This document shows, one piece after another, positions 46,423-64,000 of a stretch of DNA of 64,000 bases. Origin of the DNA: a virus; IMG/VR virus record IMGVR_UViG_3300048929_000691. One strand, given 5' to 3'. The translations under genes were made by a program, and so were the position numbers. Each line of letters begins with the position of its first letter. Position 1 is the stretch's first letter. The notes beneath the pieces were generated by a model that saw nothing but the letters and a program-made list of their open reading frames with translations, had not been told where the DNA came from and ran no database searches.

Positions 46423-46433
46423 GGGTGATAAAT

Positions 46434-48251
46434 ATGAGAATAGATAAAAAGAATGATGCAACATACACTAAAGAATTAGATGAAATGGAAAAATATTTCC
46501 TTAATATGTTTAAAAGATTTATTGAAAATGATCCTGGGTTTTTAGATAAATCTGTTGAGTCAATAATTACGGAAGCAGTTAAGAGAGCAAAAAAGGAAAT
46601 TATATTTGAAAAAGCTTCAGGAGTATTAAGTATAAACAATATGTCTGGTGTTGTTAAATTAACCTTGGATGATTTAAATGGTGAACCTAAGATTTTAACA
46701 AAATATTCAGCCTTTAATAGGCCTTTTGGCACTGATAGTGGTACAGTATGTGAAGGAAATGATCCAAGATTATCAGATGCAAGGACTCCAATGCCTCATA
46801 ACCATAATGATTTATATTACCTAAAATCGGAGCTTGTGACCCATACTGAAGATGGTTATATGGATAAGCTTGATAAGATTAAGTTAGATGGAATAGAGGC
46901 AAATGCAAATTTTTATATCCATCCAATAGGACCAGGATATAACCATATTCCTGCTGGAGGAACTAGTGGACAATACTTAAAATGGCACAGTGATGGGGAA
47001 GCAGTGTGGGAAGATGTTGCCTTAAATAAAGTAACTGAGACAGCTGATGGAATAATGTCAAAGGAAGATAAGATAAAACTAGATGGAATAGAGTCAAATG
47101 TAAAAAATTATATTCATCCAACGGGTTCTGGATATAACCATATTCCGGCAGGAGGTAATTCTGACCAAATATTAGAATGGAAAGCTGATGGAGATGCACA
47201 GTGGAAATCAAAGCCATGTGGAAATAATGGGCAAGTATATTATATAAAAGGCAATAGTTCAAGTGAAATAACTCCAGGATATATTTTATATAAAGCAACT
47301 ATAATTGAAACAGATAAGGAACTTGAGGATGCAAAAGTAACCTTAATAGATCCTTCAGTTATTTATAATACTTGGTATAGATTTTCACATGATAGTAGCG
47401 AAAATCAGCTAGCGGTAACATCAGAAATTACTGGTTGGGTTTATGATTCGGATAAGAAAAAGATAATCTGTCAAAATAATTCTATCAGTTATATTGGATT
47501 TATAAGCCCAGAAAAATATGATAATTATAATCTTGAAGTTACTATATCATCAACAGATATGGATAATGATGCTATAGGAGTTGTAATAGCTTTTACAAAG
47601 GATGCAGCTGGAAGAGAATATACTCTTTCTGTTATAAGAGCAAGGGGCTTTGACCCCCATGTTTTAATTGAAAATACATCAACTCAATATGCAATTGTAT
47701 ATAACTATAATAGAAGTGATGAAAAATTAATAAGTTATTGTTCAATTAGTTCAGATAGTATCGGTGGCTGGTCAGATATACCAAATGGTATAAGATTGAA
47801 AATAATAAGAGATGGAGATAAGATAACAACTTATAGCTCGGATATGAATTCAACAACAGTTTCTCCTTATAATAAAATTGATATTGATTTAAATTCTAAT
47901 GGCTTACTTAGTAAATTTAAAGGACCATGTCAATATGGGTATTCTTGTCTATCTCAAATGTATTCTAGTTTTTCAGATATAAAATTTGATAAAGATAATA
48001 AATATATTTATGATTCAAGAACAAATGCAACTTGGATGGTAGATGTCGCTGGAAATTGGAGCATTGACTCTACTAAAAAAGTATCAAGTGAATTTGGAAT
48101 TGGAAAGTTTGTATTTAATGAAGTAACTAAAAAGCTATATTATATTAATGATTCTGATAATATAATATCTTTTAATAGTGATTATATTAAAAAAAGTGAA
48201 TTAAATTCTTATCTTGATAATTATTTGAAAAGTAAAGGAGTGGTTAGTTAA
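46434..48251 (+). CDS. Tail fibre protein with duplicated 65-aa shaft repeat and lectin-like (TSP-C/LamG-type) head
   Basis: ATG 46434 with RBS AAGGGTGA preferred over GTG 46425. GTVCEGNDPRLSDARTP.PH.H and 2x DG.M.K.DKIKLDGIE...YIHP.G.GYNHIPAGG.S.Q.L.W..DG.A.W are fibre motifs; STDMDNDAIGVVIAF is TSP-C-like. Confidence 0.7.
   Translation: MRIDKKNDATYTKELDEMEKYFLNMFKRFIENDPGFLDKSVESIITEAVKRAKKEIIFEKASGVLSINNMSGVVKLTLDDLNGEPKILTKYSAFNRPFGTDSGTVCEGNDPRLSDARTPMPHNHNDLYYLKSELVTHTEDGYMDKLDKIKLDGIEANANFYIHPIGPGYNHIPAGGTSGQYLKWHSDGEAVWEDVALNKVTETADGIMSKEDKIKLDGIESNVKNYIHPTGSGYNHIPAGGNSDQILEWKADGDAQWKSKPCGNNGQVYYIKGNSSSEITPGYILYKATIIETDKELEDAKVTLIDPSVIYNTWYRFSHDSSENQLAVTSEITGWVYDSDKKKIICQNNSISYIGFISPEKYDNYNLEVTISSTDMDNDAIGVVIAFTKDAAGREYTLSVIRARGFDPHVLIENTSTQYAIVYNYNRSDEKLISYCSISSDSIGGWSDIPNGIRLKIIRDGDKITTYSSDMNSTTVSPYNKIDIDLNSNGLLSKFKGPCQYGYSCLSQMYSSFSDIKFDKDNKYIYDSRTNATWMVDVAGNWSIDSTKKVSSEFGIGKFVFNEVTKKLYYINDSDNIISFNSDYIKKSELNSYLDNYLKSKGVVS
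46851..47204 (+). repeat. Internal 195-nt-period duplication in tail fibre
   Basis: Copies start at about 46851 and 47046 (shared TAGATGGAATAGAG and GGATATAACCATATTCC). Confidence 0.75.
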
Positions 48252-48600
48252 TGAAAAAATATCTAGACAATAGTGGATTAACTTATTATTCTACTAAATT
48301 ATATGATTATCTTAAAAACAAACTTACTGTATTAAATTCTAATATTTCTACTTTGGAAGCAAAAGTCGATTCCGACAATAAGGATTTAAATACTAAAATA
48401 GAAAGTAATAATCAAATTATAAATCAGAATACTTCTGATATAAAAACTGCAAATAGCAATATCAGTAATCTATCAACTAAGGTTGATAATAATTATGATG
48501 AGCTTAAGGCTGATTTTAATTCTGCAGATATGAGACCTACAGGGGATTCTATTTTTATAAATAACGTGGAGCAATTTGTATTTAAGGATATAGGCGCTGG
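48224..48600 (+). repeat. Direct repeat, copy 1 (copy 2 starts at 55693)
   Basis: TTTGAAAAGTAAAGGAGTGGTTAGTTAATGA and the following ~330 nt recur at 55693 with scattered substitutions. Confidence 0.85.
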
Positions 48601-48907
48601 AGAAACAGTTACAATCCCAAATTCAGGAGATGGAAGTGACTTTCTTATAGAGTGTTTTGTAAAAACAGAAACTGGAACACCACTTGTCCATAAGAGCTTA
48701 AATATTAATACTTCTACAAAAGATTTATTAGAATATGATGATAGATATGTTGAAATAACAGATGATGGAGCAAAGCCTAAAGATAATGTAACCTTAGATT
48801 TAACTTTGCAAGGCACAATTGGTGAATATAATATCTACACTACTGATTTACTTCCAGTAGAACTGGTAGATAGTATAAATAATTTAACAGATTATAAATT
48901 ATCTTAG
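48251..48907 (+). CDS. Fibre adaptor-like protein (KYLD..GL..Y N-terminus, coiled coil), copy 1
   Basis: Paralogue of 55720..56391 with clear DNA identity over the first ~330 nt. Confidence 0.7.
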   Translation: MKKYLDNSGLTYYSTKLYDYLKNKLTVLNSNISTLEAKVDSDNKDLNTKIESNNQIINQNTSDIKTANSNISNLSTKVDNNYDELKADFNSADMRPTGDSIFINNVEQFVFKDIGAGETVTIPNSGDGSDFLIECFVKTETGTPLVHKSLNINTSTKDLLEYDDRYVEITDDGAKPKDNVTLDLTLQGTIGEYNIYTTDLLPVELVDSINNLTDYKLS

Positions 48908-48925
48908 ACGAAAGTGGTGCTTAAA

Positions 48926-49570
48926 ATGAATTGCCTTATATATTCAGGAAATAAATACTTTGGTATTGAAAATAATGAATTAACTGAAACTACATTAAAT
49001 ATTGAAAATGCTTTTGACTCATCCCTTTTAGATTCTTTAAGGGATGAGTTAAAAGCATATGCACCTTTTAAAATTGTATTATTTAATGCTAATAAGAATA
49101 AGAGCATGGTCTATAAAATAAATAGTTCCAATGCTTTTATTCTTATAAATTTAACTAATATAAAGCATGAGAACATTCAATTTGAAAACAAGCATAAGAT
49201 GCTCGTATCAAATGATTTAAAAAATTGGGATAACTACTATGATTCTAATAATTGTGACTCTAGATATTTTGAGAACTATTCTGATAGATACATCAAAGAT
49301 TATGTAAATAGTAAATGCAAATATATTAACTATATTAGCAAAAATTATAACTATATTTTATTAAAATTGAATGATGGAGAATTGCTAAATAAATTATTTG
49401 AAAATATATTAGGAGAATATAAGAGGATTGATTATGATACAAATTTTAATACAGGAGCAATAAATCAAGTGACTGTAACTTTTCCAGAAAAATATAGTCA
49501 AGTATTAATCAAAAAAACAAAATCTGTGGAAAGCAAGATAGTTATTAAGGATAGTATAGCTGGTTTTTAG
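48926..49570 (+). CDS. Stand-alone homologue of the C-terminal domain of the glycine-rich proteins
   Basis: ATG 48926 preferred (RBS GAAAGTGGTG). Ends VTFPEKYSQVLIKKTK, compare FEKEYSEILINRLTK in 49581; starts LIYSGNKYFGI, compare LLQKDNKLYIP. Confidence 0.5.
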   Translation: MNCLIYSGNKYFGIENNELTETTLNIENAFDSSLLDSLRDELKAYAPFKIVLFNANKNKSMVYKINSSNAFILINLTNIKHENIQFENKHKMLVSNDLKNWDNYYDSNNCDSRYFENYSDRYIKDYVNSKCKYINYISKNYNYILLKLNDGELLNKLFENILGEYKRIDYDTNFNTGAINQVTVTFPEKYSQVLIKKTKSVESKIVIKDSIAGF

Positions 49571-49580
49571 GAGGTGGATT

Positions 49581-51017
49581 ATGCTTAAAGAATTTACTTT
49601 TAATTATACTGGAAAGGTACAAACTTTGATTGTACCTGCTACAGGTAACTATAAACTTGAATGTTTTGGTGCCTCAGGTGGTATAGGTTATGGGAATGCA
49701 AATCCTTTTGGATTAGGTGGATATGCCTGTGGCGAAATTAAATTAAATAAAGGTGATATTCTATATGTTTATGTTGGTGAAGATGGAGTTAACACTATAA
49801 CAACACCTTCATTTGGTGGAGGTGGTGCAGCTTTTTCAACTTCAGGCCATAATGGAGGCAGAGGTGGTGGAGCTTCTGATATAAGGCTTGGTTCAGATGA
49901 TTTAAAATGTAGAATAATTGTAGCAGGAGGAGGCGGCGGAGCTCAACCAAGTTGTGGAGGCAACCACACTACCGCAGGACATGGAGGGGGATTAATTGGT
50001 GCACAAAGTTATAATCAAGCTGGTGGATATGCAGGATCGTATGCAAATGGAGGAACTCAAACCGCTGGAGGAACTTCTGGAAATGTAAGTGGACAATGGC
50101 ATGCTAATGGAAGTTTTGGATATGGTGCTAATTCACAAACCTGTGGTGCTGGTGGTGGTGGAGGCTGGTATGGAGGAGGCTCTACCTATACTGCTGGAGG
50201 AGGTGGAGGGTCGTCTTACTTAGGAACTCTTAAAAATTCTTCTACATCCTCTGGTATTAACAAAGGAAATGGGAAAGTAGTTATATCCTTAATTTACGAT
50301 GAAGTTGCTTTCTTTTTTGTGAAAGGTGAAGAATATTATTTGCCAATAGCAAAATATTTTGATATTGGTACAAAAATGTTTAAAGCTGTTAGTTTAAATG
50401 ACTTAAGGTCTGAAATTAATAATAGCAACTATGGAAATGTAAGTTTATATAATATAAATGCACCATTTGTAATAGATTCAATTTCATATAATCCACTTGA
50501 TTATCTAGATATATCTAAATGTAAAATATGTGTTATACCTAATGGGTCTAGGGCTAATGACCATGTGAAAGAACTAGATATTAATTATGTTCCTACCTCT
50601 AAAGCTTTATCTAAAACTAACATTAAAATTAAAGATATGTACACTCCTTATAAAGATAACATTCAAAATCCATTTTTGAATATAGAAGCAGCAAATAAAG
50701 CTAATATTAGCTTTCTCATAAATTATGAAAATTTATATGATATCGTAAATGACGATTGCAGTTTAATAGATAAAAAATTAATAAAAGATAATTTCTGCCT
50801 AAGCTTTAAATTAAATGATGTAGTGAGTTTGTTAAAATCAGTATCGTTATGCAGCAGAGATATTAATTATTTTAAAATAAGAGATGATGATTTAAATGTA
50901 AGCAATGATTATATAAATACTCAAATTGCTTTTGAGAAAGAATACTCAGAGATATTAATAAATAGGTTGACTAAACAATATTTTAAGTATTTAGACGATA
51001 ATTTGGACACATTCTAA
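49581..51017 (+). CDS. Glycine-rich (ALK/LTK-like polyglycine-II) domain protein, subtype A1; candidate receptor-binding protein
   Basis: FNYTGKVQT...YKLECFGASGG...GGGASDIR...RIIVAGGGGG...GGGGGWYGGG...GGGGSSY...GNGKVVI plus ~235-aa C-terminal domain. Confidence 0.75.
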   Translation: MLKEFTFNYTGKVQTLIVPATGNYKLECFGASGGIGYGNANPFGLGGYACGEIKLNKGDILYVYVGEDGVNTITTPSFGGGGAAFSTSGHNGGRGGGASDIRLGSDDLKCRIIVAGGGGGAQPSCGGNHTTAGHGGGLIGAQSYNQAGGYAGSYANGGTQTAGGTSGNVSGQWHANGSFGYGANSQTCGAGGGGGWYGGGSTYTAGGGGGSSYLGTLKNSSTSSGINKGNGKVVISLIYDEVAFFFVKGEEYYLPIAKYFDIGTKMFKAVSLNDLRSEINNSNYGNVSLYNINAPFVIDSISYNPLDYLDISKCKICVIPNGSRANDHVKELDINYVPTSKALSKTNIKIKDMYTPYKDNIQNPFLNIEAANKANISFLINYENLYDIVNDDCSLIDKKLIKDNFCLSFKLNDVVSLLKSVSLCSRDINYFKIRDDDLNVSNDYINTQIAFEKEYSEILINRLTKQYFKYLDDNLDTF

Positions 51018-51029
51018 CGAGGTGGTTTT

Positions 51030-52495
51030 ATGGCATTAAAAACAATTACATTTAATTACACTGGAATAATGCAAACTTGGATTCCACCAGAGGGTGTATA
51101 TAGGATAAAAATAGAGTGTTATGGTGCCAAGGGTGGAGGTTCCATGATGAATGGAAGTGTAAATAGTAATGGTGCTAAGGGCGGATACTGTTGTGGTGAA
51201 TATACGTTTGAACGTAATACTCAAAGGCAATTATATATATATATGCTGGTGGTGCTGGAATTGATGGTAGATTTTCTAATACTCCTGGTGGGTGGAACGG
51301 TGGAGGAATAGGAACATACGATGGAAGAGATGATGAAGGTGGTGGCAGCGGAGGTGGTGCTTCAGATGTTAGATTGGTTGCTGCATCTTCAGGTTCATGG
51401 TATGACACTTCGCATACATCATGGGATACTGACAAGTCTTTATTGTCAAGGATTATAGTAGCTGGCGGTGGTGGTGGTCTTTCTTGGAATTTTACGGCTG
51501 GTGAAGGTGGAGGATTAACTGGGGGAATGGGTGCTAATAATACAAGCACCTCAGCAACTCAAACTAGTGGATATGCATTTGGAAGAGGTCAAGATGTATG
51601 GAGTGTTGTATGGGACGGAAATGGCGGGAATATTGGACAAGGTGGAGGTGGCGGCGGCTGGTACGGTGGATATACTTCTGCTGTATATCCAAATGTTTCA
51701 GGCTGTGGTGGCTCATCATACTATGGAAATTTAATTAATGCAAAAACAATTGCTGGACTTAATAACGATAAGGGTAAAGTTACAATAACATATGAAGATG
51801 GATACTTCTTTTTGGAGCATGATGGAAAATATTATATAACAACAGAAAAATATTTTGATACGACATCAAATTCCTTCATTCCAGTAAGTATATCTGATAT
51901 TTATAGCAACATAGTTAATAGTGGTGCTGTGTATCCATTAATCAATTTATATAAGCCGTTTATGATAGATGGAGTTTATTATTATCCCAATGATATGTTT
52001 GATTATGCTAATTCTAAAATATGTATTATTGATATTAATAAAGATTATAAATTAGATATGAATTATATCCCATCAAACATAGCATTATCTAAAACAAATA
52101 TAAAAGTAAAAAATAAATATACCCCAGTACATGATGAATTTGAGCTTACATTTTTAGATATAAATTCAAATAATAAAGCAAAAATATATTATTTTTTAGA
52201 TTTTGGTAAAAATGAAGCATATAAAAATTGAAGTGTATTAGATGATGATATTATAATTAATGATTTTTACTTAAACCTTAAATTTAATTCATATGATGGA
52301 ATATTTGATTCTATAACATTATATGTGAAGAATAATGATAAATATACTAAACTTAAAAGCACTAATATTAATGTATATGACAATTTTAATTTTGAAATGC
52401 TCATATGCTTCAAAGATAATTATGAAGAAGTACTGGTTAATAAGATTGCAAAACAATCAATGGATTATACAATTGATACTTTAGATAAATTTTAG
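51030..52495 (+). pseudogene. Glycine-rich domain protein subtype B1, disrupted by +2 frameshift in a (TA)6 tract and an in-frame TGA
   Basis: Removing one AT from 51232-51244 restores LYIYAGGAG...GGGASDVR continuity into the 51374 frame. TGA at 52229-52231 is followed in frame by the normal C-terminus ending YTIDTLDKF* at 52495. Confidence 0.85.
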
Positions 52496-52673
52496 TAGTT
52501 ATACAATGTTTAATTATGTTAATGAGAAAAGTTTATAGTTACATTAATATTAAAAACTGCTGGAATAATTATTTTTATTGAAAATTATAGTAGATGAATA
52601 ATAAAAAGAAAGATTATATAGAAAGTATTATGATTATAAAATATTGAATGTGTGCTTTTTAGGGGGAATTTTT

Positions 52674-54047
52674 ATGCAAGAAACTTTAACATTTAATTAT
52701 ACTGGAGCAGTTCAAACGTGGACAGTTCTTCAAACTGGTTATTATAAAATTGAAGCGTGTGGAGCTAAAGGAGGAAGTGTATTAGATGGAGTTGGCGGAA
52801 ATGGTGGATATGCTTCCGGTAATATTAGGTTAACAAAAGGACAAGTGTTATATGTATATATTGGAGGTTCTGGTTATATTAGCGGCTGGAATGGTGGCGG
52901 AAGTGGATCTGCTTATGGTGGAGGGGCCTCTGATATAAGGACAATTGGAGGACAATGGGATGATTTATCTTCGTTACAATCAAGGCTGATAGTTGCTGGA
53001 GGCGGTGGAGGTGCAGAAAGAACTACAGGCGGTGCTGGTGGTGGTCTCATTGGAGGAGCTCCTGTAGGTTCATATAGTACAAGCGTCTACGCATCTTCAG
53101 GATCTCAAGTTTCCGGAGGAACAGGAGGTTCTTCAGGTAGTTATGGTTTAGCTCAATCAGGTGGATTTGGATATGGTGGAAGTGGTAGTGTTGGAGATTC
53201 TGGTCCTGGAGGAGGTAGTGGCTGGTATGGTGGAGGGGGAATCACATATGCTGGAGGTGCTGGCGGTGGTTCTTCTTATGTTGATTTACTGGAAAATGGT
53301 AAAACTTCCTCAGGTGTAAATACAGGGAATGGGAAAGTAACGATAACTTTATTAAATAGGGAAATATTCGCATTGGTTAAAGATGGCAGATACTATGTTC
53401 CAAATAAACAAACATTTGATATAGAAACAAAACAATTCAAAGATGTCTCTATTGAAGATGTTACATTATATAATTGTAGCATAAAAGAATTAACTAATGC
53501 ATTTATGTTAAATGGGGAAACTATTACACCGAATAATATAATAGATTTTTCTAAATACAAAATTTGCTTATTATCAGATAACATTTTACCAGATACTTTA
53601 GAAATAAAATATAATCCATCATTAAAAATATTATCGAAAACGACTATTAAAATAAAAGAAAAGTATACTCCTTTTTCAGAAGCTTTGCGAAATGCATATT
53701 TAAACATTATTGGAACAAATAAATCTAAAATTGGATACACAGTTAATTATGAAAAAATTTTTAAGGATGTATCAAATAATAATGCATCTTTAATAGATGA
53801 AGAAATACTAAAAGATGATTTTTATTTAAGTTTTAAATTTAATGAGACTTCAAGTATATTAAATACAATAACGTTATACAAAAATGATAATGTTACTTAT
53901 TCGAAAATAGAAAATGATAATTTAATTATAACTAATGATTTTGTCAATACATTTGTAAATTTTGAAAGAGCATATGGAAAAGTATTGATAAATAGAATAA
54001 CCAAAACTTATTTTAAATATTATGCTGACAGCTTAGATAAATTCTAG
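52674..54047 (+). CDS. Glycine-rich domain protein, subtype A2
   Basis: Start moved to ATG 52674 (RBS AGGGGG); same motif set as A1; ends RITKTYFKYYADSLDKF. Confidence 0.75.
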   Translation: MQETLTFNYTGAVQTWTVLQTGYYKIEACGAKGGSVLDGVGGNGGYASGNIRLTKGQVLYVYIGGSGYISGWNGGGSGSAYGGGASDIRTIGGQWDDLSSLQSRLIVAGGGGGAERTTGGAGGGLIGGAPVGSYSTSVYASSGSQVSGGTGGSSGSYGLAQSGGFGYGGSGSVGDSGPGGGSGWYGGGGITYAGGAGGGSSYVDLLENGKTSSGVNTGNGKVTITLLNREIFALVKDGRYYVPNKQTFDIETKQFKDVSIEDVTLYNCSIKELTNAFMLNGETITPNNIIDFSKYKICLLSDNILPDTLEIKYNPSLKILSKTTIKIKEKYTPFSEALRNAYLNIIGTNKSKIGYTVNYEKIFKDVSNNNASLIDEEILKDDFYLSFKFNETSSILNTITLYKNDNVTYSKIENDNLIITNDFVNTFVNFERAYGKVLINRITKTYFKYYADSLDKF

Positions 54048-54058
54048 TGGAGGTTCTT

Positions 54059-54262
54059 ATGGCGACGTGAAGAGTAACGTTTAATTATATTGGAGATATG
54101 AAAACTTTTATGATACCGCTTAATACTAAAAGAATTATTATAGAATGTTGGAGAACTTCTGGAGGCAGCAACTACAATCTGAATGGTAAAGATGGATATG
54201 TGAAAGGTACTTTGGATTATCCCCCAACAAATAAAACATTATATTTAAAGGAGAGTTTTTAA
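54059..54262 (+). pseudogene. Truncated relic of a further subtype-B glycine-rich gene
   Basis: RBS GGAGG, then MAT*RVTFNYIGDMKTFMIPLNTKRIIIECWRTSGG...DGYVKGTLDYPPTNKTLY-LKESF*; homologous to the N-termini of the B genes and cut off at the LY motif. Confidence 0.8.
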
Positions 54263-55660
54263 ATGCTTAAAATAGTTGCTTTTAATTATACAGGTAATGT
54301 ACAAAATTTTGCAATTCCAAATCATGTAACACAATTTTATATAAAATGCTATGGAGCTCAAGGATATACTTTTAACATGTATGGATTATATAATTCTGGT
54401 GGTAAGGGCGGATTAGCATATGGAAAATATATATTAAAACCTGATGATAATAGAACGCTTAATATTTATGTTGGTGGGACAAATGGATATAATGGAGGGG
54501 GTATTGGAGGAAATGGTAATACAGGAGGTGGAGCTTCTGATATTAGAGTAAATGGTACTACTTTAACTAACCGTATAATAGTTGGCGGTGGTGGTGGTGG
54601 TGCAAGTGGATATCGTCCAGGTGGAGATGGTGGTGGTCTTATAGGCGGAAGCGGTGAAGCTTCAGGGGGGACTCAAACATCAGGTGGATATAGTGTAGAT
54701 TATAATGGTGCTATTGTAGGTAGAGGAACTTTGGGGCAAGGAGGAGTTGCTTGGTATAATTATATTTATGCTGGTCCAGGTGGTGGAGGATACTACGGTG
54801 GTGGTGGCGGATCAAACCACTATGGAACCAATAATGATAATTCTGGAGGGGGAGGCTCATCCTATATAGCATTACTTGATCCGATAGATGCATCAACTAC
54901 TTCTGGGGTAAGGACAGGAAATGGATTGGTTGAAATAACATATGAAGAAGATCCAAATGCTTATTTCTTAGAAAAAGATGATAAATATTATGTTATAGAT
55001 AAAAAATATTTTGATAATATAAATAAAATATTTTTACCAGTTGAACTGGAGGATATATATAATGACTCAGTTGACACAGCTATTACTCCAAGAGCCGATA
55101 TGAGTATAACATCAATGTCAAAGCCATTTGTGCTAGACAATCAAACCTATGATCCCATTAAATTAATAGATTTTAAAGAATATAAACTTTGTACTTTATC
55201 TAAAGATAATTTATATAAAATAACAATGTATTATACAGCATCAAATAAAGCTTTATCTGCGACAAATATAAAAATAAAGGAAAAATATATTTTAGATAAT
55301 TATAGGACAAATGCAAATGATTCAATATTCTTTTTAGATATAAAAGCTACTGATAAAACAAAAATAGATTATTTTTTTGATTATGGGGAAACCAAATCAT
55401 ATAATAATTGCAGTATATTAAATACAGACAAAATAAGTAATGATTTTTATTTTGATTTTAAATTAAATTTGGCAGATAGTTTATTACAGTCAATAACTTT
55501 ATATGGTAAGAATAATGATAAATATGTAAAGCTTAAAGAGCCTAATATAAATATATATGATAAATTCATAAAATTTAATGAAAGCTACAATGAAGTTATA
55601 ATTAATAAATTATGCAAGCAAAGTGTTGAATATACAATTAATACCTTGGATAGATTTTAA
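54263..55660 (+). CDS. Glycine-rich domain protein, subtype B2
   Basis: FNYTGNVQ...GGGASDIR...RIIVGGGGGG...VEITYE; ends YTINTLDRF. Confidence 0.75.
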   Translation: MLKIVAFNYTGNVQNFAIPNHVTQFYIKCYGAQGYTFNMYGLYNSGGKGGLAYGKYILKPDDNRTLNIYVGGTNGYNGGGIGGNGNTGGGASDIRVNGTTLTNRIIVGGGGGGASGYRPGGDGGGLIGGSGEASGGTQTSGGYSVDYNGAIVGRGTLGQGGVAWYNYIYAGPGGGGYYGGGGGSNHYGTNNDNSGGGGSSYIALLDPIDASTTSGVRTGNGLVEITYEEDPNAYFLEKDDKYYVIDKKYFDNINKIFLPVELEDIYNDSVDTAITPRADMSITSMSKPFVLDNQTYDPIKLIDFKEYKLCTLSKDNLYKITMYYTASNKALSATNIKIKEKYILDNYRTNANDSIFFLDIKATDKTKIDYFFDYGETKSYNNCSILNTDKISNDFYFDFKLNLADSLLQSITLYGKNNDKYVKLKEPNINIYDKFIKFNESYNEVIINKLCKQSVEYTINTLDRF

Positions 55661-55672
55661 GGACATGAAGAA

Positions 55673-55720
55673 ATGCAAAATAAATATATAATTTTGAAAA
55701 GTAAAGGAGTGGTTAGTTAA
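55673..55720 (+). other. Chimeric duplication junction (mini-ORF MQNKYIILKSKGVVS)
   Basis: The first 30 nt are identical to the start of the 59315 gene; the last part is identical to the end of the 46434 gene; the join is at a shared TTTGAAAAGT. Confidence 0.9.
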
Positions 55721-56391
55721 TGAGAAAATATCTAGATAATAATGGATTAACTTATTATTCTACTAAATTATATGATTATCTTAAAAATAAACTTACTGCA
55801 TTAAATTCTAAGATTTCTAATTTAGAAATAAAAGTCGATTCCGACAATAAAGAGTTAAGCAATAAAATAGAAAATAACAATCAAATTATAAACCAGAATA
55901 CTTTTGATATAAAAACTGCAAATAGTAATATCAGTAATCTATCAACTAAGGTTGATAATAATTATGATGAGCTTAAGACTGATTTAAATGCTCCAGATAT
56001 AAGGCCAACAGGGGATTCTATTTATATAAATAACGTGGAGCAATTTGTTTTCAAAGATGTTGTAGCTGGTCAAGCTGTAACTATTCCTAATAAAGGGGAT
56101 GGATGTGACTTCTTGATTCAATGTTATGTACAAGCAGAGCAAGGAACACCCCTTCAACATAAAGTTATAAATATAAATACTGCGACAAAGGATTTATTAG
56201 AATATGATCCTAGGTATGTTGAAATAACCGATGATGGTGCTATACCAAAAACTTCTGTTTCTTTACAACTTCAAAAAGAAGATACAATAAGTGGATATAA
56301 TGTATATGTAACTGATTATCTTCCAGTAGAATTAGTAGATAATATTACAGCGTTAACAGGCTATGGACTTGTATTGGATGAAACTCCTTAG
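55720..56391 (+). CDS. Fibre adaptor-like protein, copy 2
   Basis: Paralogue of 48251 (MRKYLDNNGLTYYSTKLYDYLKNKL...). Confidence 0.7.
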   Translation: MRKYLDNNGLTYYSTKLYDYLKNKLTALNSKISNLEIKVDSDNKELSNKIENNNQIINQNTFDIKTANSNISNLSTKVDNNYDELKTDLNAPDIRPTGDSIYINNVEQFVFKDVVAGQAVTIPNKGDGCDFLIQCYVQAEQGTPLQHKVININTATKDLLEYDPRYVEITDDGAIPKTSVSLQLQKEDTISGYNVYVTDYLPVELVDNITALTGYGLVLDETP

Positions 56392-56533
56392 AGAATAAAA
56401 AAACATGGTAGTTGTGTTGTTTGAAATGAAAGTAAAACTATTATTGTAAATTCCTAACGAGATTACTAATTAGTTGTTAAAAACTTACTTATGAGAAAGA
56501 AAAATTTATTAAAAATACTATAGGAGGGGTTTA

Positions 56534-57940
56534 ATGGTAATTAAGCAATTTGATTTTGTTTACACAGGTGCAGTACAAACATTTGTTGTTCCTTACTCTG
56601 GATACTATGATCTTCAAGTGTGGGGAGCTCAGGGTGGAAGTAGAAACAATAATGGTGGAATGGGTGGATATTCAAAAGGTCATCTATTCCTAACTAAAGC
56701 TCAAATCCTTTATGTATATGTTGGAGCATGTCCGAACTACAATACTAATTGGAATGGTGGAGGTTATTCAGTCTATCCTGGTGGAGATGCTAGCGATATT
56801 AGAATTGGAGGAAAAGCTCTTACTAACAGAATCATAGTTGCTGGTGGAGGTGGCGGTACTGGATATGGTCCTAGTACTACATGGAACTATGTTGGAGGTG
56901 TAGGTGGAGGAGTTGCTGGAGGAAACGGACAAGGTGGTGCTGGATATTATGGTTTCGGTGGAACACAAACAGTTGGAGGTGCAAGAGGAACCTATATTGA
57001 AAGCAACTGGTATAACCAGGCTGGTAGTTTCGGACAAGGTGGTAATTGTGTCTCTAACTCCTATGGAGGAGGTGGCGGTGGCGGCTGGTATGGCGGCGGC
57101 TGCGGAGAGTGTGGTAGTGGTAATGATGGTGGAGGAGGCGGTGGCTCTGGATATATTGGTGGTGTATTAAATGGAACAATGCAATCTGGAGTTAACGCTG
57201 GTAATGGAAAAGTCATGATTAGATATTGCAGTCAAAGTACAATATTATTACAAAAAGATAATAAATTATATATTCCAGATAAGGCTCATTTTAATATATA
57301 TAGCAAAGAGTTTAAAGAAGCCACAATTGATGAAATTACAGTATTATGCAAAGATTGGGAAGCCACATTTCCTAGTTTACAAAGTATGTTAAATCCAACA
57401 TTTGAATATAACAAAGAAAGGTACACTTCAAGTGATATTATAGATTTTTCTCAATATAAACTATGCGTATTCACTACAGAAAAAATGGCTGGCATGGACA
57501 TAACCTTTAATCCAACTCAAACTTCTCTTGATAAAACAGAAATAAAAATAAAAGATAAATTTATTCCATTTATTGATAAGCTTTATAATGTGTTTATGGA
57601 TATTACAACTTTAGATAAAACAAAATTATCATATCGTATGTTTTATGATATATATGGTGCAGTAGATTATAAAAAAACAAATTTATTATATCAAGAAATA
57701 CTAGAGGGAGATCTTAATATATGGTTTAAATTAAATGATAAAGCTAGCATGCTTGAATCAATAATATTATATGGAAGACCATTCAATAATTATATTGAAA
57801 TAAAAGATGATGATTATTTGATGCAAGTTGATTTTATAAATACCTATGTCACATTTAATTACGACAATAAAGAAGTTTTAATAAATAGAATTACTAAAGA
57901 AAGCTTCAAGTTAACTGATAGTTCGTTGGAAAAATTCTAA
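56534..57940 (+). CDS. Glycine-rich domain protein, subtype A3
   Basis: YTGAVQTFVVPYSGYYDLQVWGAQGG...ILYVYVG...GNGKVMI; ends RITKESFKLTDSSLEKF. Confidence 0.75.
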   Translation: MVIKQFDFVYTGAVQTFVVPYSGYYDLQVWGAQGGSRNNNGGMGGYSKGHLFLTKAQILYVYVGACPNYNTNWNGGGYSVYPGGDASDIRIGGKALTNRIIVAGGGGGTGYGPSTTWNYVGGVGGGVAGGNGQGGAGYYGFGGTQTVGGARGTYIESNWYNQAGSFGQGGNCVSNSYGGGGGGGWYGGGCGECGSGNDGGGGGGSGYIGGVLNGTMQSGVNAGNGKVMIRYCSQSTILLQKDNKLYIPDKAHFNIYSKEFKEATIDEITVLCKDWEATFPSLQSMLNPTFEYNKERYTSSDIIDFSQYKLCVFTTEKMAGMDITFNPTQTSLDKTEIKIKDKFIPFIDKLYNVFMDITTLDKTKLSYRMFYDIYGAVDYKKTNLLYQEILEGDLNIWFKLNDKASMLESIILYGRPFNNYIEIKDDDYLMQVDFINTYVTFNYDNKEVLINRITKESFKLTDSSLEKF

Positions 57941-57952
57941 GGGGGGGTAGTA

Positions 57953-59302
57953 ATGGCTTTAAAAACTGTTACTTTTTATTATACTGGCAAGGTTCAAACA
58001 ATACAGTTGCCAGACGGATTAAGAGAAGTTTATTTAGAAGCAGCCGGATCTATTGGCAATAAGAATGGTGGTGCTGGAGGCTATGGTGGTAAAGCTTATG
58101 GAACATATAAATTTAAAAATGGAGATTCGCGAATACTAAATATTTATGTTGGTGGAATCGGATGGAATAGTGGCAATAGTTATGGTGGTGGTGCTTCTGA
58201 CATTAGATTAAATGGAACTGACTTTACCAATAGAATTATAGTTGCTGGTGGTGGCGGTAGTGGATCTGGATGGGAGCCAGGAGGTGCTGGCGGCGGACTT
58301 GTTGGTAATGCTGGTGGAAGCCCAGCGTGTGGCGGTGGCGGAACTCAAACATCTGGAGGATTTGCTGGAGCAAACTACGGATATGGAATAGGATATGCTG
58401 GTGGCTTTGGCTATGGTGGTCGTGATACCTGGAGTGGTGGTGGCGGCGGCTGGTATGGTGGTGGTTCTGGTGGTGGTAAATATTGCGATGATGGCGGCGG
58501 AGGTGGAGGTTCATCTTATATAAGCCTACTCGAAAGCGCTGGAACTAGTACTGGAGTTAATGGTACTACAGGGTATGTAAAAATAACATATGAAGAATTT
58601 CCATTTTTATTTTGTTTAAAAAAAGATAATGATTATTTTATTCCACAATCAAATTTTTATGATGCTACTACAAATAGCTTTGCTCCACTTACTATAAATC
58701 AAGTAGTAGATTCTATAAAAACAAACGTGCTATCAATTTTTGAATTATGTAAGCTATTTGTAAAAGATGGGACAACATATGATCCATCAAAAATAATAGA
58801 TTATTCAGAATATAAAATAGTTGGTTTATCAAGCCAAGAAGTTTACAAACTCAAACCAATTTATAAGCCAACAGATAAAGCATTACTTAAGACAAACATA
58901 CGAGTTCGTGAGCAATACAGACAAGTTAGTCAAGGACTACCTAGTTTGTTTATTGATATAACCTCTCCAGATAAAAATAATTTAGACTATTTTATTGATT
59001 ATAATAGAGACGATCAAGATAATTTACGGAAAAGCTGCGGTATATTAAATAAAGAGATACTAAAATATGATTTCTTTTTAAGTTTTAGGTTTGAGGCTAC
59101 TGATGCTAAATTGCAAACAATAACACTATTTGGAAGAAATAATGATAAGTATACTAAGATAAAAGATTATAGTATTGATGTATATGATGATTTTATTAGT
59201 AAAGCATATATAGTATTTCACAAAGACTATGATGAAGTGTTTGTAAATAAAGTATCGAGTGAAAGCGCTACTTATACAATCAACACATTAGATAAATTTT
59301 AA
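57953..59302 (+). CDS. Glycine-rich domain protein, subtype B3
   Basis: MALKTVTFYYTG...ILNIYVG...VKITYE; ends YTINTLDKF. Confidence 0.75.
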   Translation: MALKTVTFYYTGKVQTIQLPDGLREVYLEAAGSIGNKNGGAGGYGGKAYGTYKFKNGDSRILNIYVGGIGWNSGNSYGGGASDIRLNGTDFTNRIIVAGGGGSGSGWEPGGAGGGLVGNAGGSPACGGGGTQTSGGFAGANYGYGIGYAGGFGYGGRDTWSGGGGGWYGGGSGGGKYCDDGGGGGGSSYISLLESAGTSTGVNGTTGYVKITYEEFPFLFCLKKDNDYFIPQSNFYDATTNSFAPLTINQVVDSIKTNVLSIFELCKLFVKDGTTYDPSKIIDYSEYKIVGLSSQEVYKLKPIYKPTDKALLKTNIRVREQYRQVSQGLPSLFIDITSPDKNNLDYFIDYNRDDQDNLRKSCGILNKEILKYDFFLSFRFEATDAKLQTITLFGRNNDKYTKIKDYSIDVYDDFISKAYIVFHKDYDEVFVNKVSSESATYTINTLDKF

Positions 59303-59314
59303 GGATGTGAAAAG

Positions 59315-61153
59315 ATGCAAAATAAATATATAATTTTGAAAAGTCCTGTTAAGATTGGCGATTATGAAAGAGTGGCAAGCTATTCGGAAGGTCTTACTAA
59401 AGGTGAAGAGCAGCTTTTAGTCACAAGAGATTTAAAGTTTTTTTTAACCGATGGTAAAGGTGGATATTTAGAATTTAAATCAATAAATTCAGGTATAACT
59501 CTTGATGAAGTAAATCAAAAATTAAAGGATTTAGATAATAAGATATCTGATGAAATAAGAGATTTAGATGACAAAAGTTCTAAGGATATTAAAACCCTTA
59601 AAGATGCAGTTGATGCATTGTCTCTTAAATTTTCAGGCTATGTGACAACAGAGGATTTTGAGGATTTAAAAACCAAAGTAGAGTCGAATACGACTTTGGC
59701 CACTCATGATAATCGAGAGGTACTTGATAAATTTAGTGTTGATAAAGATGATAATCCTTTATTTAATGGGAAAAAGATTGTAGCAGATTTTGATACTTCT
59801 GGTATAGAAGCTGAAATTGCCAATTTGAATGCTAGAAGTATAATAGGAAGTAATTTAGATTATGGGTTATTTGGAATTTCTAAAGCAACAAGTATCGGTG
59901 CTGGTGACATAGTTCCATTTAATACAACATATATGAACAACGGATTAACAGTTTCAAATGGTGTTGTAAAGCTAAAAAAAGGAAGAAAATATGAAGTAAA
60001 AGCACAATCAGCTACAAATGTTTCTAATAATAATGTTTGGTTTTTTATACAAGCTAATTCTGTTAAAGTTGGGAAATCTGGTTGGTGTGGAAATGTTAAT
60101 CAAATAAGTATACCAGCAGTAGCAATAATAGACTGTAGTGTAGATACAAGTCTTATAATAACAACTTCAAATGAATATAACATAGATGATTCATGTGCTC
60201 TTTTGACATATTTAGAAATAGTAGAAATAGGAAGAATAACTGTGATAGATCCTTGCGAAGATGGTAAAAATATAAATTTTGAATATGGTTATTTTAAAGC
60301 AAACCAATCAGCAAATTTAGCACCTGGCAATCATTTAGAACTAGATATGATAAAAGGGAACATTACTATTTCCACTGGTTCAAATCAGGAAAAAGGATTA
60401 ATAACATTACATGCCAATAAAAAATATAAGCTTGATTTTTCTTATTCTAATGCTGGAAATTCTACTAATGGTATTATAGATTTTAATGTATGTGATTCTA
60501 ATGGAAATATATTAGAAGATTTACCATATGCGTATCCTACAACTTATACTGGTGATTCACAAGCTTCACCTGTCTCAACATTTATTTTAGAACCTACAAT
60601 TGATACTGTAATAAATTTTAAAATAGCTGCAAACGCCTCACATTGGGTAGGTGCTTACCTTGTTATAGAAGAGATCGCACAACCTTATTACTTTAATTAT
60701 TACAAAGATAGTCTACAAACAACTACTTTATTCAATGGAGCTGCTGACACTAAATCAATAGATTATACTTTAAGCGATAGTATACAGAATTATGAAAAAA
60801 TAATAGTATATGCAGCATGTAATATTAATGGAGTCATTAGAGAAAAAACTACTAACATAATTAATGTTTCTGAAATAGAAAATAATAATAAGTATGAATT
60901 TATAGTTGGATTTTCAATTAATGCTTCTTACTATTATTTCATTGAATTTGCATTTCCAAGCGATAGAACCTTTAATATAGCTAATAATGGATTTGTTGGA
61001 TGGCCTAATCCTATAATATACAAAATAGAAGGGATTGGCTATACTTATGAAAATCCGTACCAAGATGTTATTACAACGATCGATGAATTTACAGTTGCAG
61101 ATTCTACCATAGACTCAGACATAAATTCAGTATGGAATGAGGTGGGAATCTAA
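59315..61153 (+). CDS. Modular fibre/receptor-binding protein 1 (coiled-coil N-terminus, two C1q/BclA-C-like domains, C-terminal beta-domain)
   Basis: GDIVPFNT...NGLTVSNGVVKLKKGRKYEV resembles C1q/TNF-like jelly rolls; LFNG...YTLSDSIQNYEKI is a fibre-tip motif. Confidence 0.6.
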   Translation: MQNKYIILKSPVKIGDYERVASYSEGLTKGEEQLLVTRDLKFFLTDGKGGYLEFKSINSGITLDEVNQKLKDLDNKISDEIRDLDDKSSKDIKTLKDAVDALSLKFSGYVTTEDFEDLKTKVESNTTLATHDNREVLDKFSVDKDDNPLFNGKKIVADFDTSGIEAEIANLNARSIIGSNLDYGLFGISKATSIGAGDIVPFNTTYMNNGLTVSNGVVKLKKGRKYEVKAQSATNVSNNNVWFFIQANSVKVGKSGWCGNVNQISIPAVAIIDCSVDTSLIITTSNEYNIDDSCALLTYLEIVEIGRITVIDPCEDGKNINFEYGYFKANQSANLAPGNHLELDMIKGNITISTGSNQEKGLITLHANKKYKLDFSYSNAGNSTNGIIDFNVCDSNGNILEDLPYAYPTTYTGDSQASPVSTFILEPTIDTVINFKIAANASHWVGAYLVIEEIAQPYYFNYYKDSLQTTTLFNGAADTKSIDYTLSDSIQNYEKIIVYAACNINGVIREKTTNIINVSEIENNNKYEFIVGFSINASYYYFIEFAFPSDRTFNIANNGFVGWPNPIIYKIEGIGYTYENPYQDVITTIDEFTVADSTIDSDINSVWNEVGI

Positions 61154-62858
61154 TGGCAAAAATTAATTTTGAAGATGCTGTTATTAAAATAATAAAAAGA
61201 TATTTAGTTAGTTTTGGTAAATCCTTAGCTTCTAAATTTTACACAAAAAAGCAAGTAGATACCATGATATTACCTATTCCAGCAATTCAAACAGATATAG
61301 CTAGTTTGAAGACAAGAAGTGTTTTAGGAAGTAAATTGAAGACAGGATTATATAAACCGGCAACAAAAATCACTGGCGGTGTTACTACAGGTATAGTAAA
61401 AATGGGTACAAAAATATCTGGTGATTTTACACTTAATGCAGATGGAACAATAACTCTTCCGAAAGGTTCTTATTATAAAGTAAGAGGGGCTTTAAGATTT
61501 GCAACAAATACAACTTCAGGTTTTGCTTCCTATATGATAAGAAACTTCACAGATTCAGTGAATGCTGGAGTAGCAGCAACTATAAATAGTTATTCATATT
61601 GGGAAGGACAACAAGAAGCTATTGCATATATAGATACAACACAAAAAGATATAAACGTAGGCATATATATTACTGGCGTAAATAATGCAACAGGTGCTGA
61701 AATAACTGACGGATTTACTTTTCTTGATATACAAGAAGTCAATAGGACAACCATTATAGACCCTTGCGAAGATGGTAAGAATATAAATTTTGAATATGGT
61801 ATGTTTAAGTTATCAACAAGTCCAACAACTATGGCAGTTGGAGATTTCATTAAATTTAATACTATGCCATATGGTAATATGTCAATAAATCCAGCAACAT
61901 ACCAAGTACCTTTAAAAGCTAATAAAAAATATAGAATTAGTATAGATATTAGTGGTGTATTTCATAACACAGTTTTTGCTTTGTATAATATAACAACTGG
62001 GACTGTAATTCAGATATTATATGGAGCTGTAAATGATATTGACTATAATTATTTATCGACAGCAGAGTTTATATACGAGCCTACAGCTGAGTGTAATGTT
62101 GGTGTAAAATGCTATGCTATTTATGGTTCATTTTCTTCAATAGTTAATACAAATACACAAATGGTTATTCAAGAAATTGCACAACCATACTACTTTAATT
62201 ATTACAAGGATAGTATAGCTTCAAATGTATTGTTTAGTGGAAATGCTGCAAGTGTCGGAGATTATACTTTGAGCGATGATATAACTAAGTATAAATATCT
62301 ATTAATATCATGGCAAACAGGCAATAGTGCATCTGGAACTACAGCCATAACTCAAACTAAAACAGACATGATTCCTGTTGATACAATAGCAATAGGGGAC
62401 ACTAATAATAAAAGATTATGGTTTGATATGCTTAATGATACAACATTAAAATCAGTTTTGTTATTGTTCTTTAAAAGTTCAAAAACAATGACATATGGTT
62501 TTGGGACAGCATCAAGTCCTTGGACAAATCCTGTTGTAACTAGAATAGAAGGTATAGGCTATAGTTATGAAAATCCTTATCAAGATGTTATTACAACGGT
62601 TGACGAATTTGTACTTTCAGATTCAGCTGTAGACACAGACATAAATTCATTATGGAGTGAGGTGGGGATTTAATGGCGAAAATTAATTTTGAAGATGCTG
62701 TTATTAAAATAGTAAAAAAATATTTGGTTAGTTTTGGTAAATCATTAGCTACTAAATTTTATACAAAAAAGCAAGTGGATACTATGATAGTACCCATCCC
62801 AGCAATTCAAACAGATATAGATAATTTAAAGGTAAGAAGTGTGATTGGATCAAAATTA
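61024..62858 (+). repeat. ~315-nt direct repeats spanning gene junctions (61024-61338 and 62544-62858), period 1520 nt
   Basis: EGIGY.YENPYQDVITT.DEF...DINS.W.EVGI*MAKINFEDAVIKI...IPAIQTDI conserved at DNA level. Confidence 0.85.
61153..62673 (+). CDS. Modular fibre/receptor-binding protein 2
   Basis: Same three-domain layout and linkers as 59315; TAATG stop-start overlap. Confidence 0.65.
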   Translation: MAKINFEDAVIKIIKRYLVSFGKSLASKFYTKKQVDTMILPIPAIQTDIASLKTRSVLGSKLKTGLYKPATKITGGVTTGIVKMGTKISGDFTLNADGTITLPKGSYYKVRGALRFATNTTSGFASYMIRNFTDSVNAGVAATINSYSYWEGQQEAIAYIDTTQKDINVGIYITGVNNATGAEITDGFTFLDIQEVNRTTIIDPCEDGKNINFEYGMFKLSTSPTTMAVGDFIKFNTMPYGNMSINPATYQVPLKANKKYRISIDISGVFHNTVFALYNITTGTVIQILYGAVNDIDYNYLSTAEFIYEPTAECNVGVKCYAIYGSFSSIVNTNTQMVIQEIAQPYYFNYYKDSIASNVLFSGNAASVGDYTLSDDITKYKYLLISWQTGNSASGTTAITQTKTDMIPVDTIAIGDTNNKRLWFDMLNDTTLKSVLLLFFKSSKTMTYGFGTASSPWTNPVVTRIEGIGYSYENPYQDVITTVDEFVLSDSAVDTDINSLWSEVGI

Positions 62859-64000
62859 AGTTTTGGGTCTTTTGATATAGACACATCAAAAACAGGAGTT
62901 AATCCCACGCTAGCTGCTAATTATAAAATACCCTTTAAAATTAAAAGTGGTAATCTTATAGTGGATTCAAATGGTTATATCAAATTGGAAAAAGGAAAAA
63001 GTTATAACCTTAATTTTTTTGCAACAAGCAATGCACGATTTGACTTTCAATTTTTTAACGTTACAGATTCAGTTAGTGTTGGAAAAACAATAATAAGTGG
63101 TTCAACTATAAGTGGAAGTGGTTCTTATTCAATTGAAGTTACCAAAGATATCTATATTACAGTTATGGTAAGTTATAGGGAAGGAACTATGTTATTTACA
63201 GATTATTGTGAACTTACAATACAAGAGATTGGAAGAAATACAATAATAGATCCTTGTGAAGATGGTAAGAATATAAAATTTGAACATGGATTATTCATAA
63301 ATGTTAATGACCAATCTATAGTTCAAAATACTGTGTTAAAATTAACAAATCAATTAAGTGGAAATATGAGTTTATCAGCAAATGGGTATGTTAATCTAAA
63401 AGCTGGTAAATCTTATAAGCTAAAGGCATCAGCTGGTGATGATAAAACGTATATTGATTATATGATTTATGATGTTACAAATAAAAAGACCATAGGGGTT
63501 TGTGCTTCAAATGCAGCAACAATAGTATCTCAACCAATAGCCATAGCCGAATATATTCCACCAACAGATTGTGAGATAAGTGTAATAATAAGATACCTTG
63601 ATTCCACAGGAACAGGTAAAATTAGTGCATGGAGATCATATTTGGAGATTGAAGAAATAGCACAACCTTATTACTTTAATTACTTTAAAGATAGTATCAA
63701 ATCAACTACATTATTTGACGGATCTGCTCCATCAGTAGGAAGTTATACATTACTAGATGATATAACAAAATATGAATATTTGAAGATATGGTCTTGTAGA
63801 GTAGAAGGAACAGTAAAAAGAGATAAAAGCAGTATTGAAGTAAAAGTATCAGACATAACAGGTGCTACATGTGAATTTATAATAAGTTCATATGCTCTTG
63901 CTAATGTTTTTGACAGTATGGAATTTAGTTTTGCTAGTAATAAATTAAGGATAGACGCAATGTATAATGGAGGTTGGCCTTCTTTTATTATATATAAAAT
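62673..64000 (+). CDS. Modular fibre/receptor-binding protein 3, 3' truncated by window edge
   Basis: Not in the ORF track (no stop in window). ATG 62673 gives MAKINFEDAVIKIVKKYLVSFGK..., with linkers IIDPCEDGKNIKFEHG and EEIAQPYYFNYFKDS; frame appears open to 64000. Confidence 0.7.
   Translation, partial: MAKINFEDAVIKIVKKYLVSFGKSLATKFYTKKQVDTMIVPIPAIQTDIDNLKVRSVIGSKLSFGSFDIDTSKTGVNPTLAANYKIPFKIKSGNLIVDSNGYIKLEKGKSYNLNFFATSNARFDFQFFNVTDSVSVGKTIISGSTISGSGSYSIEVTKDIYITVMVSYREGTMLFTDYCELTIQEIGRNTIIDPCEDGKNIKFEHGLFINVNDQSIVQNTVLKLTNQLSGNMSLSANGYVNLKAGKSYKLKASAGDDKTYIDYMIYDVTNKKTIGVCASNAATIVSQPIAIAEYIPPTDCEISVIIRYLDSTGTGKISAWRSYLEIEEIAQPYYFNYFKDSIKSTTLFDGSAPSVGSYTLLDDITKYEYLKIWSCRVEGTVKRDKSSIEVKVSDITGATCEFIISSYALANVFDSMEFSFASNKLRIDAMYNGGWPSFIIYK

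Follow-up and report, generated by a model that had tools for sequence, protein, structure and literature searches.

The analysed window, a stretch of 64,000 nucleotides (nt) of viral DNA (IMG/VR record IMGVR_UViG_3300048929_000691), contains between positions 49581 and 59302 an array of genes for glycine (Gly)-rich proteins of two types, A and B. Taken as a whole, the explanation favoured here, with moderate confidence, is that a ~120-kb phage-like extrachromosomal element of Clostridium from soil and the rhizosphere has its distal tail-fibre module in this region, and that the array encodes a constitutive multi-head receptor-binding set, with exchangeable N-terminal heads and C-terminal docking, which would be neither a switch nor an obligate heteromer. 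An exchangeable N-terminal head on a C-terminal attachment module is favoured by the replacement of the head alone between relatives, the fold matches of the head, the conservation of the C-terminal domain (C-domain) and the occurrence of this domain on proteins with other heads. The same polarity had been put forward in a preliminary description of the window, and it was supported by the exchange of the heads and by the conserved, position-specific C-terminal part, from which host binding and docking were inferred.

The six gene starts given in that description were confirmed by open reading frame (ORF) listing and translation. All six proteins passed the Pfam model PF12810 (ALK_LTK_GRD) within their first ~235 residues, with scores of 39–116 bits against a cut-off of 24.5 bits (E 4e-33 to 1e-9), and over their full length they matched phrog_7388, a family without assigned function. 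The six genes are true paralogues. They were found in the order A1 B1 A2 B2 A3 B3, with the gene of an adaptor-like protein (adaptor 2) between B2 and A3, and all copies were co-oriented on the + strand, each behind a purine-rich spacer similar to a ribosome-binding site. The A-to-B spacers measured 12 nt and contained no small ORF. Six paralogues in strict A/B alternation had been described, and both this order and the subtype motifs quoted for it were found in the window; nevertheless, B1 was a pseudogene, so that five of the six copies were intact, a relic of a seventh copy was present, and the alternation was not strict in relatives.

The replacement of the head was observed when the array was compared with that of a near-identical element, L009. 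In A1, the nucleotide identity to L009 fell to 0–68% only over positions 49600–50250, corresponding to the head, and was 83–100% downstream. Once again, in B2 the identity fell to 37–72% only over the head (54260–54840) and reached 98–100% downstream, the head being 62% identical and the remainder 99%. A2 was 98–99% identical to its L009 orthologue across all three segments. Furthermore, metagenome X3 carried additional head variants at A1 and B2, a third variant in the case of B2, on the same stalks and with the same joints. These results indicated that exactly the Gly-rich head is replaced as a cassette between near-identical elements. The per-column entropy along the protein did not separate the head from the stalk, and the recombination data were more informative.

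The AlphaFold2 model of A1 had a mean predicted local distance difference test (pLDDT) value of 86, with values above 90 over the head. Foldseek matched the A1 head to the TG domains of ALK and LTK (E 8e-10 to 5e-6, probability 1.0, TM score by target 0.34–0.50) and, more weakly, to chain Q of the Bxb1 tail tip (E 5e-4, probability 0.97) and to the Pam3 fibre (E 3e-3, probability 0.95). When the family profile was compared with solved structures, ALK/LTK were the sole high-confidence matches (ALK, E 7.5e-19). The Gly runs were nearly invariant, and neither helix nor strand was assigned to them by DSSP. The ALK/LTK-type Gly-rich domain recognized in the preliminary description was therefore borne out by PF12810, Foldseek and the family profile, and both the family and the predicted fold of the head are those of an N-terminal tumour necrosis factor (TNF)-like plus polyglycine domain of the ALK/LTK "TG" type.

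According to the models, the A and B proteins consist of three parts, the N-terminal head, a variable middle domain and a conserved C-terminal β-sandwich. A clear difference between the two types was only observed in the last ~90 residues (C-tail), in which the mean identity in the window was 47.6% within type and 33.3% between types; the corresponding values were 48.7 and 45.3% for the Gly-rich domain, and 34.5 and 31.8% for the middle domain. Separate trees of the segments were calculated for 51 family members, taken from the window, the genome G001, four other contigs and database hits. The C-tail tree required one change of the A/B label, an agreement that is partly circular given that the label was taken from the last 30 residues, whereas the middle-domain tree required four changes and the Gly-rich-domain tree 9–10. 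Several starred clades of the head tree contained both A-tailed and B-tailed proteins. These numbers of label changes pointed to A/B as a property of the C-terminal tail: the division into A and B is old and is confined to the last ~90 residues, and the heads have been shuffled between the two subtypes. It had been proposed that the subtypes were distinguishable in both the N- and the C-domains, and that separate trees of these domains would each give two clades. The C-tail tree behaved in this manner, but the Gly-rich-domain tree did not, and the difference between the N-domains, already weak in the window, failed across the 51 members.

The proteins of the family end in a short motif, [TS][LIM][DE]xF, predicted to be disordered in the monomer, and the last ~25 residues, with pLDDT values of 30–54, coincide with the peptide that defines A and B. 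When modelled alone, the C-domain yielded a generic β-sandwich with a pLDDT of 81. A profile of this domain, run against 1.84 billion representatives, retrieved only 59 proteins, nearly all of which carry it at their very C-terminus. A Gly-rich head was present on eight of the ten distant matches tested, while some other C-domain proteins begin like β-helix proteins, one of them (a 501-amino-acid (aa) relative) with a weak match to a Pel9A-like β-helix. These data indicated that the C-domain also occurs on β-helix-headed proteins. Additionally, the nine-sequence alignment of the family to which the 218-aa protein encoded at 48914 belongs (the 218/440-aa family) was aligned with the A/B C-domain as far as the final residue (E 4.9e-4, probability 32%). 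A profile made from the single sequence of the 48914 protein matched the C-domain weakly (E 0.006, probability 6%), and no match was obtained with the 440-aa protein alone. The 48914 protein and the A/B proteins probably share the C-terminal module. Proteins of ~440 aa with a β-helix-like N-terminal start motif and weak DUF1565 matches were also noted in relatives (L007 6358–7680; L013 8680–9999; L015 8661–10001); they are located between the adaptor and the first Gly-rich gene, and their tail ends resemble the A/B tails.

The order of the array was compared in relatives. It was A B A B adaptor A (truncated) B in L009, A B A (remnant) A B in L008, and B A A A B B in L012/G076. In the distant L013 and L015 an adaptor and a ~440-aa protein were followed by one A and one B or B-like gene. 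In G001 a broken B was found together with two A-B pairs; its three other B genes were separated by a GDSL esterase gene and by an adaptor plus a 440-aa gene. Truncated copies were found in G001, L008 and L009, and at least one gene of each tail type was present in every element examined. A-then-B is the commonest unit, although not a strict one, and is probably ancestral. The recurrence of A+B as a two-gene unit, as previously described, extended to the single pair of L013 and L015. As for the survey of relatives that had been suggested, a variable number of pairs was observed with A-then-B as the commonest order, but this order was not conserved (B-A-A-A-B-B) and lone B genes occurred in G001.

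The mode of growth of the array was apparent from the 59-nt spacer between B2 and adaptor 2, which is composed of the first 30 nt of the 59315 gene and the final 28 nt of the fibre gene, with a common 10-mer, TTTGAAAAGT, at the joint. This scar, in which the beginning of the 59315 gene is followed by the end of the fibre gene, shows that the array grew by tandem duplication of whole adaptor-to-B units. In the C-tail, the identity of A1 to A2 was above that of either to A3, and the identity of B1 to B2 above that of either to B3, values congruent with the co-duplication of A and B. The A/B alternation in the window is due to this duplication history and not to chance. The array also shrinks by deletion and pseudogenisation, and it evolves quickly.

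Two lesions were found in B1 by three-frame reading, a +2 frameshift caused by an extra TA at 51232–51233, inside a TA run (51231–51247), and an in-frame TGA at 52229–52231, derived from a TGC codon, at a position occupied by Cys in B2, B3 and the orthologue. Both lesions were absent from the L009 orthologue, which is 97.5% identical, and from contigs of three other metagenomes; since they are missing from these sources, B1 was inactivated recently and in this lineage only. Phase variation at the TA run was considered as the main reading of B1 and rejected, given the second lesion and the in-frame tract in all four other sources; the TA tract alone cannot switch the gene back on. The relic of the seventh copy is cut off at the LY motif and was absent from L009 and from X3, where the joint runs from 54058 to 54263. 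The ratio of non-synonymous to synonymous substitutions (dN/dS) was 0.11 for B3 against L009 (34 synonymous and 15 non-synonymous changes), 0.30 for the A1 stalk and 0.16 for adaptor 1 against L009, and 0.13 for the fibre. These values indicated that the intact copies are under purifying selection.

A switchable array had also been proposed. Between 46000 and 60000, the sole inverted repeat was a 26-nt palindrome inside A1, and no oppositely oriented cassettes were present. With neither inverted repeats nor an invertible segment, and all copies co-oriented, the array does not appear to be a switch of the invertible (Mu Gin/P1 Cin) type or of the diversity-generating retroelement type, and this proposal was not supported. 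The features of the array and of its surroundings are listed in Table 1.

Table 1. Features of the Gly-rich array and adjacent genes, in window positions.
Feature	Coordinates	Strand	Match or remark
Tail-fibre gene, 608 aa, opens the module	46425..48251	+	phrog_33406 tail fibre protein, E 2e-81
Adaptor-like protein 1, 218 aa, head of repeat unit 1	48251..48907	+	phrog_16326
218-aa protein, headless form of the 440-aa β-helix-headed family	48914..49570	+	phrog_37647 positions 241–440 of 440, E 3e-36
A1, 478 aa: Gly-rich head, middle domain, A-type C-tail	49581..51017	+	PF12810 E 4e-33
B1, pseudogene	51030..52498	+	Two lesions: 51232–51233 and 52229–52231
A2, 457 aa from ATG; TTG 30 nt upstream	52674..54047	+	PF12810 E 2e-28
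Gly-rich head relic, seventh copy	54059..54262	+	65 codons, stop at codon 4
B2, 465 aa: Gly-rich head, middle domain, B-type C-tail	54263..55660	+	PF12810 E 6e-19
Tandem-duplication scar	55661..55719	.	Direct comparison; repeat families D3, D10
Adaptor-like protein 2, 223 aa, head of repeat unit 2	55720..56391	+	76% identical to adaptor 1
A3, 468 aa	56534..57940	+	PF12810 E 8e-30
B3, 449 aa	57953..59302	+	PF12810 E 1e-9
Fibre-like paralogue, downstream edge of the array	59315..61153	+	phrog_12269 (genes at 59315, 61153 and 62673)

The window is low in G+C, and every long ORF lies on the + strand. PHROG matches upstream of the array included two sheath-like genes, a 1,879-aa protein with a transglycosylase region and virion structural proteins; three phrog_12269 paralogues lie downstream, and holin and GH25 lysin genes follow the array in relatives. 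The placement of the array in a tail-fibre module, as previously proposed, was supported by the PHROG matches around it. A 167-nt stretch of the fibre gene was ~70% identical to tail-fibre genes of the flagellotropic Bacillus jumbo phages AR9/PBS1. Adaptor 1 has a coiled-coil N-half and a β-rich C-half, with weak matches to coiled coils of tail proteins. Megablast of the region against the phage collection gave no match, and the promoter and terminator scans of it gave the background level only.

The A1 protein was located on a contig of 119,782 bp, and relatives of the family on contigs of 125–139 kb, some of which are named C. saccharoperbutylacetonicum or Clostridium sp. YIM B02555. The second replicon of G001 (136,188 bp) carries a longer array of the same Gly-rich family followed by a GH25 lysin gene, and DNA related to the window, which itself comes from a root metagenome, was present in biofilm and soil metagenomes. 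The ~120-kb element has a relative in the 136,188-bp megaplasmid of C. saccharoperbutylacetonicum N1-4, a plasmid that has been connected with "X particles", which are rare, giant and contractile and bear three wavy filaments (PMC10538166).

Several other features were observed in the window and in its relatives. The fibre gene contains an internal direct repeat (46836–47012 and 47031–47207, 71% identical). Two sheath-like genes, of phrog_279 (10122–11696) and phrog_16991 (12436–14772), are found within one tail module, and the 14838 protein matched positions 15–184 of 501 of a family labelled "major head protein", a label that may be wrong. The stretch 59315–64000 contains at least three tandem phrog_12269 paralogues, the first with an N-terminal extension of ~110 residues; relatives had four copies, with the common ending ...W(N/S)EVG(I/L/M). 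A third Gly-rich type, "X", of 550 aa and ending in ...TL(E/D)EF, was found in relatives upstream of the fibre gene and behind its own adaptor-like pair (L006 9986–11638; L012 3–1319; L019 1649–3301), with no copy in the window from 43 kb on, which was the stretch examined. The megaplasmid of the N1-4 type has a GDSL/SGNH esterase gene inside the array (L007 3232–5424; G001:C2 about 81231–83423), directly preceding a B-type gene without the first part of the head, in which the esterase may have replaced the head. A search of the genome contigs with an alignment of the B type only gave 13 pattern matches, none of which was confirmed.

Under the favoured explanation, the Gly-rich head would bind the host surface by analogy with Pam3 gp24, in which TNF-like and Gly-rich domains recognize the receptor via hypervariable distal tips (PMC9608196). 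The C-terminal module would dock the protein to the fibre/adaptor scaffold, and the A and B tails would address two different docking positions; indeed, the finding of both tail types in every element examined suggests a need for both, and two such positions would be the simplest arrangement. One particle would then display several different heads simultaneously, and this multi-head set would broaden or secure host recognition.

Several observations weigh against this explanation. The presence of the A/B proteins in particles is a prediction from the gene context. The docking role of the C-domain could only be inferred, because no structural relative was recognized: the best match of the fold search had a Z of 5.9 (residues 100–195), a generic β-sandwich for which no known fold could be named, nothing significant was obtained against BFVD, and the ESM Atlas look-alikes scored 0.75 or less. 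The homology of the 218/440-aa family to the A/B C-domain (probability 32%, as above) was weak. In PtsHN10M, from a Clostridioides difficile prophage, which is the one relative with this architecture that has been tested, the Gly-rich N-domain is conserved, and the C-terminal part binds cells and is required for the contact with the upstream fibre protein; this is the opposite polarity (PMC9615553). Finally, the only particles reported for the N1-4 element are giant tails, rare and headless (PMC10538166), and since they lack heads, killing of the target, instead of infection, may be the outcome of binding.

A more ambitious version of this explanation can be offered tentatively, as a possibility of rather low probability. 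In it, the A tail, the B tail and the related 218/440-aa tail would be orthogonal docking tags, and one adaptor assembly would carry two or three heads at defined positions, forming a C-terminally anchored plug-in system with Gly-rich or β-helix cassettes at the N-terminus. A giant contractile particle would then bear fibre tips that are heteromeric and multi-headed, each of them made of one adaptor + A + B unit.

Other explanations were considered for the same data. The preliminary description had interpreted each pair as one functional cassette, with A and B forming an obligate heteromeric receptor-binding head. This would fit A-then-B with 12-nt spacers as the commonest arrangement (three times in the window and in L009, twice in L008, and once each in the distant L013 and L015), the presence of both tail types in every element and the co-duplication of A and B. 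However, the repeated A-B order is explicable by tandem duplication alone, and the partners decay singly: B1 is doubly inactivated while A1 is intact, with a recently exchanged head and a dN/dS of 0.30, and in L009 A3 is truncated before the C-tail and B3 is intact. The B-A-A-A-B-B order of L012/G076, the lone B genes of G001 and the free movement of the heads between A and B tails are also difficult to reconcile with an obligate pair, and the characterized relatives PtsM (PMC9615553) and Pam3 gp24 (PMC9608196) are homotrimers. The prediction of the full-length A3 + B3 complex returned no answer (score 0.00) and weighs neither for nor against A-B contact. The obligate heteromer was hence left unsupported and is considered unlikely.

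The polarity proposed for C. difficile PtsM, with a structural or attachment role for the Gly-rich N-domain and receptor binding by the middle and C-terminal domains, would be the classical one. In its favour, PtsHN10M has a conserved Gly-rich domain, with residues 259–570 being sufficient for cell binding (PMC9615553), and the middle domain was the least conserved segment among the paralogues studied here (25–41% identity). Nevertheless, it is the Gly-rich head, and not the middle or C-terminal part, that is replaced between near-identical elements. The C-terminal module is the most conserved, position-specific and common to differently headed proteins, and the C-domains of the A/B family and of the PtsM-like protein are unrelated; this polarity was judged quite improbable for the array. 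A decaying gene accordion in a defective element, in which the copies would be duplication leftovers with little present function, would account for the pseudogene, the decapitated relic and the duplication scar of the window, for the truncated copies in G001, L008 and L009, and for the link of the N1-4 megaplasmid only to rare headless "X particles" (PMC10538166). This seems very unlikely in view of the five intact copies out of six, the absence of the B1 lesions from four other sources and the purifying selection on B3, the A1 stalk, adaptor 1 and the fibre, and the fact that heads were replaced cleanly and in frame suggests that function is still being selected for.

The closest known proteins to the multi-head receptor-binding set favoured here are those of the C. 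difficile PtsM type. PtsHN10M carries PF12810 at the N-terminus, is a homotrimer, and binds cells and SlpA via its variable C-terminal part (PMC9615553). As in the A/B family, PF12810 is N-terminal (the A1 head was 39% identical to phiCDHM19 gp32 over 201 residues, E 1e-17), and the gene occupies the distal end of the tail-fibre module in a clostridial element with a contractile tail, in the position of phiCDHM19 gp32 and phiCD508 gp68; the Gly-rich gene of phiCDHM19 lies where the PtsM-type receptor-binding proteins lie. The C-terminal parts, on the other hand, are unrelated (hhalign of the C-domain profile with gp32: E 0.28, 11 columns). The PtsM type is preceded by a PtsL-type (A511 gp105-like) fibre, whereas the adaptor of the window had no similarity to phiCDHM19 gp31, and it is followed by a PtsN chaperone gene, whereas no small PtsN-like gene follows each copy in the window. 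PtsM is, moreover, a single gene and not an array, and its Gly-rich domain is conserved and its C-terminus variable, whereas the head is variable in the A/B family. The A/B family is therefore related to PtsM in the head only, with the pattern of variation reversed.

Similar heads are known in other systems. In the cyanophage Pam3, gp24 (PDB 7YPX/7YFW) has a TNF-like plus Gly-rich supradomain as its receptor-recognizing end, with variable distal tips (PMC9608196); however, it docks by an N-terminal helix with the head at the C-terminus, while the A/B head is N-terminal, and it is encoded by one fibre gene, for which gp25 serves as the dedicated chaperone. The "tail wing brush" gp33 of Bxb1 (PDB 9D93, chains Q) and the gp38 adhesin of Salmonella phage S16, whose relation has been noted (PMC13243192), likewise place a polyglycine-type bundle on the phage tail tip, but both are much smaller and lack the C-domain of the A/B family, and in the case of gp38 the tip adhesin is a monomer held by its N-terminus. 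The TG supradomains of ALK/LTK (PDB 7NX1, 7MZY, 7LRZ) were the best sequence and fold matches of the head; they belong to cytokine-binding receptor tyrosine kinases of animals, and only the fold is in common with phage tails.

Several tandem-encoded receptor-binding proteins per phage are known, such as tailspikes 1–4 of CBA120 and the depolymerases of phiK64-1. As in the array, their genes are tandem, co-oriented and co-expressed behind an adaptor/fibre gene, and the binding part is exchanged modularly; they differ in having conserved N-terminal adaptor domains and C-terminal enzymatic heads, while the proteins of the window have a conserved C-terminal module with two tail classes. The preliminary description knew of no described system of this form, which does not hold, as both receptor-binding proteins with Gly-rich domains and phages with multiple receptor-binding proteins have been described. 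The design with two tail classes and a conserved C-terminus is new within this theme, but it is not a new kind of system.

Receptor-binding proteins determine which bacteria a phage or tailocin can hit and, to our knowledge, nearly all engineered host-range swaps presuppose an N-terminal anchor and a C-terminal binding part. The A/B family is apparently built the opposite way. If this is true, it would provide a natural scaffold for retargeting clostridial tail-like particles, and a second, contrasting example beside PtsM, the single studied clostridial Gly-rich receptor-binding protein. The array is also a candidate for the host-recognition apparatus of the little-known giant "X particle" elements of solvent-producing clostridia.

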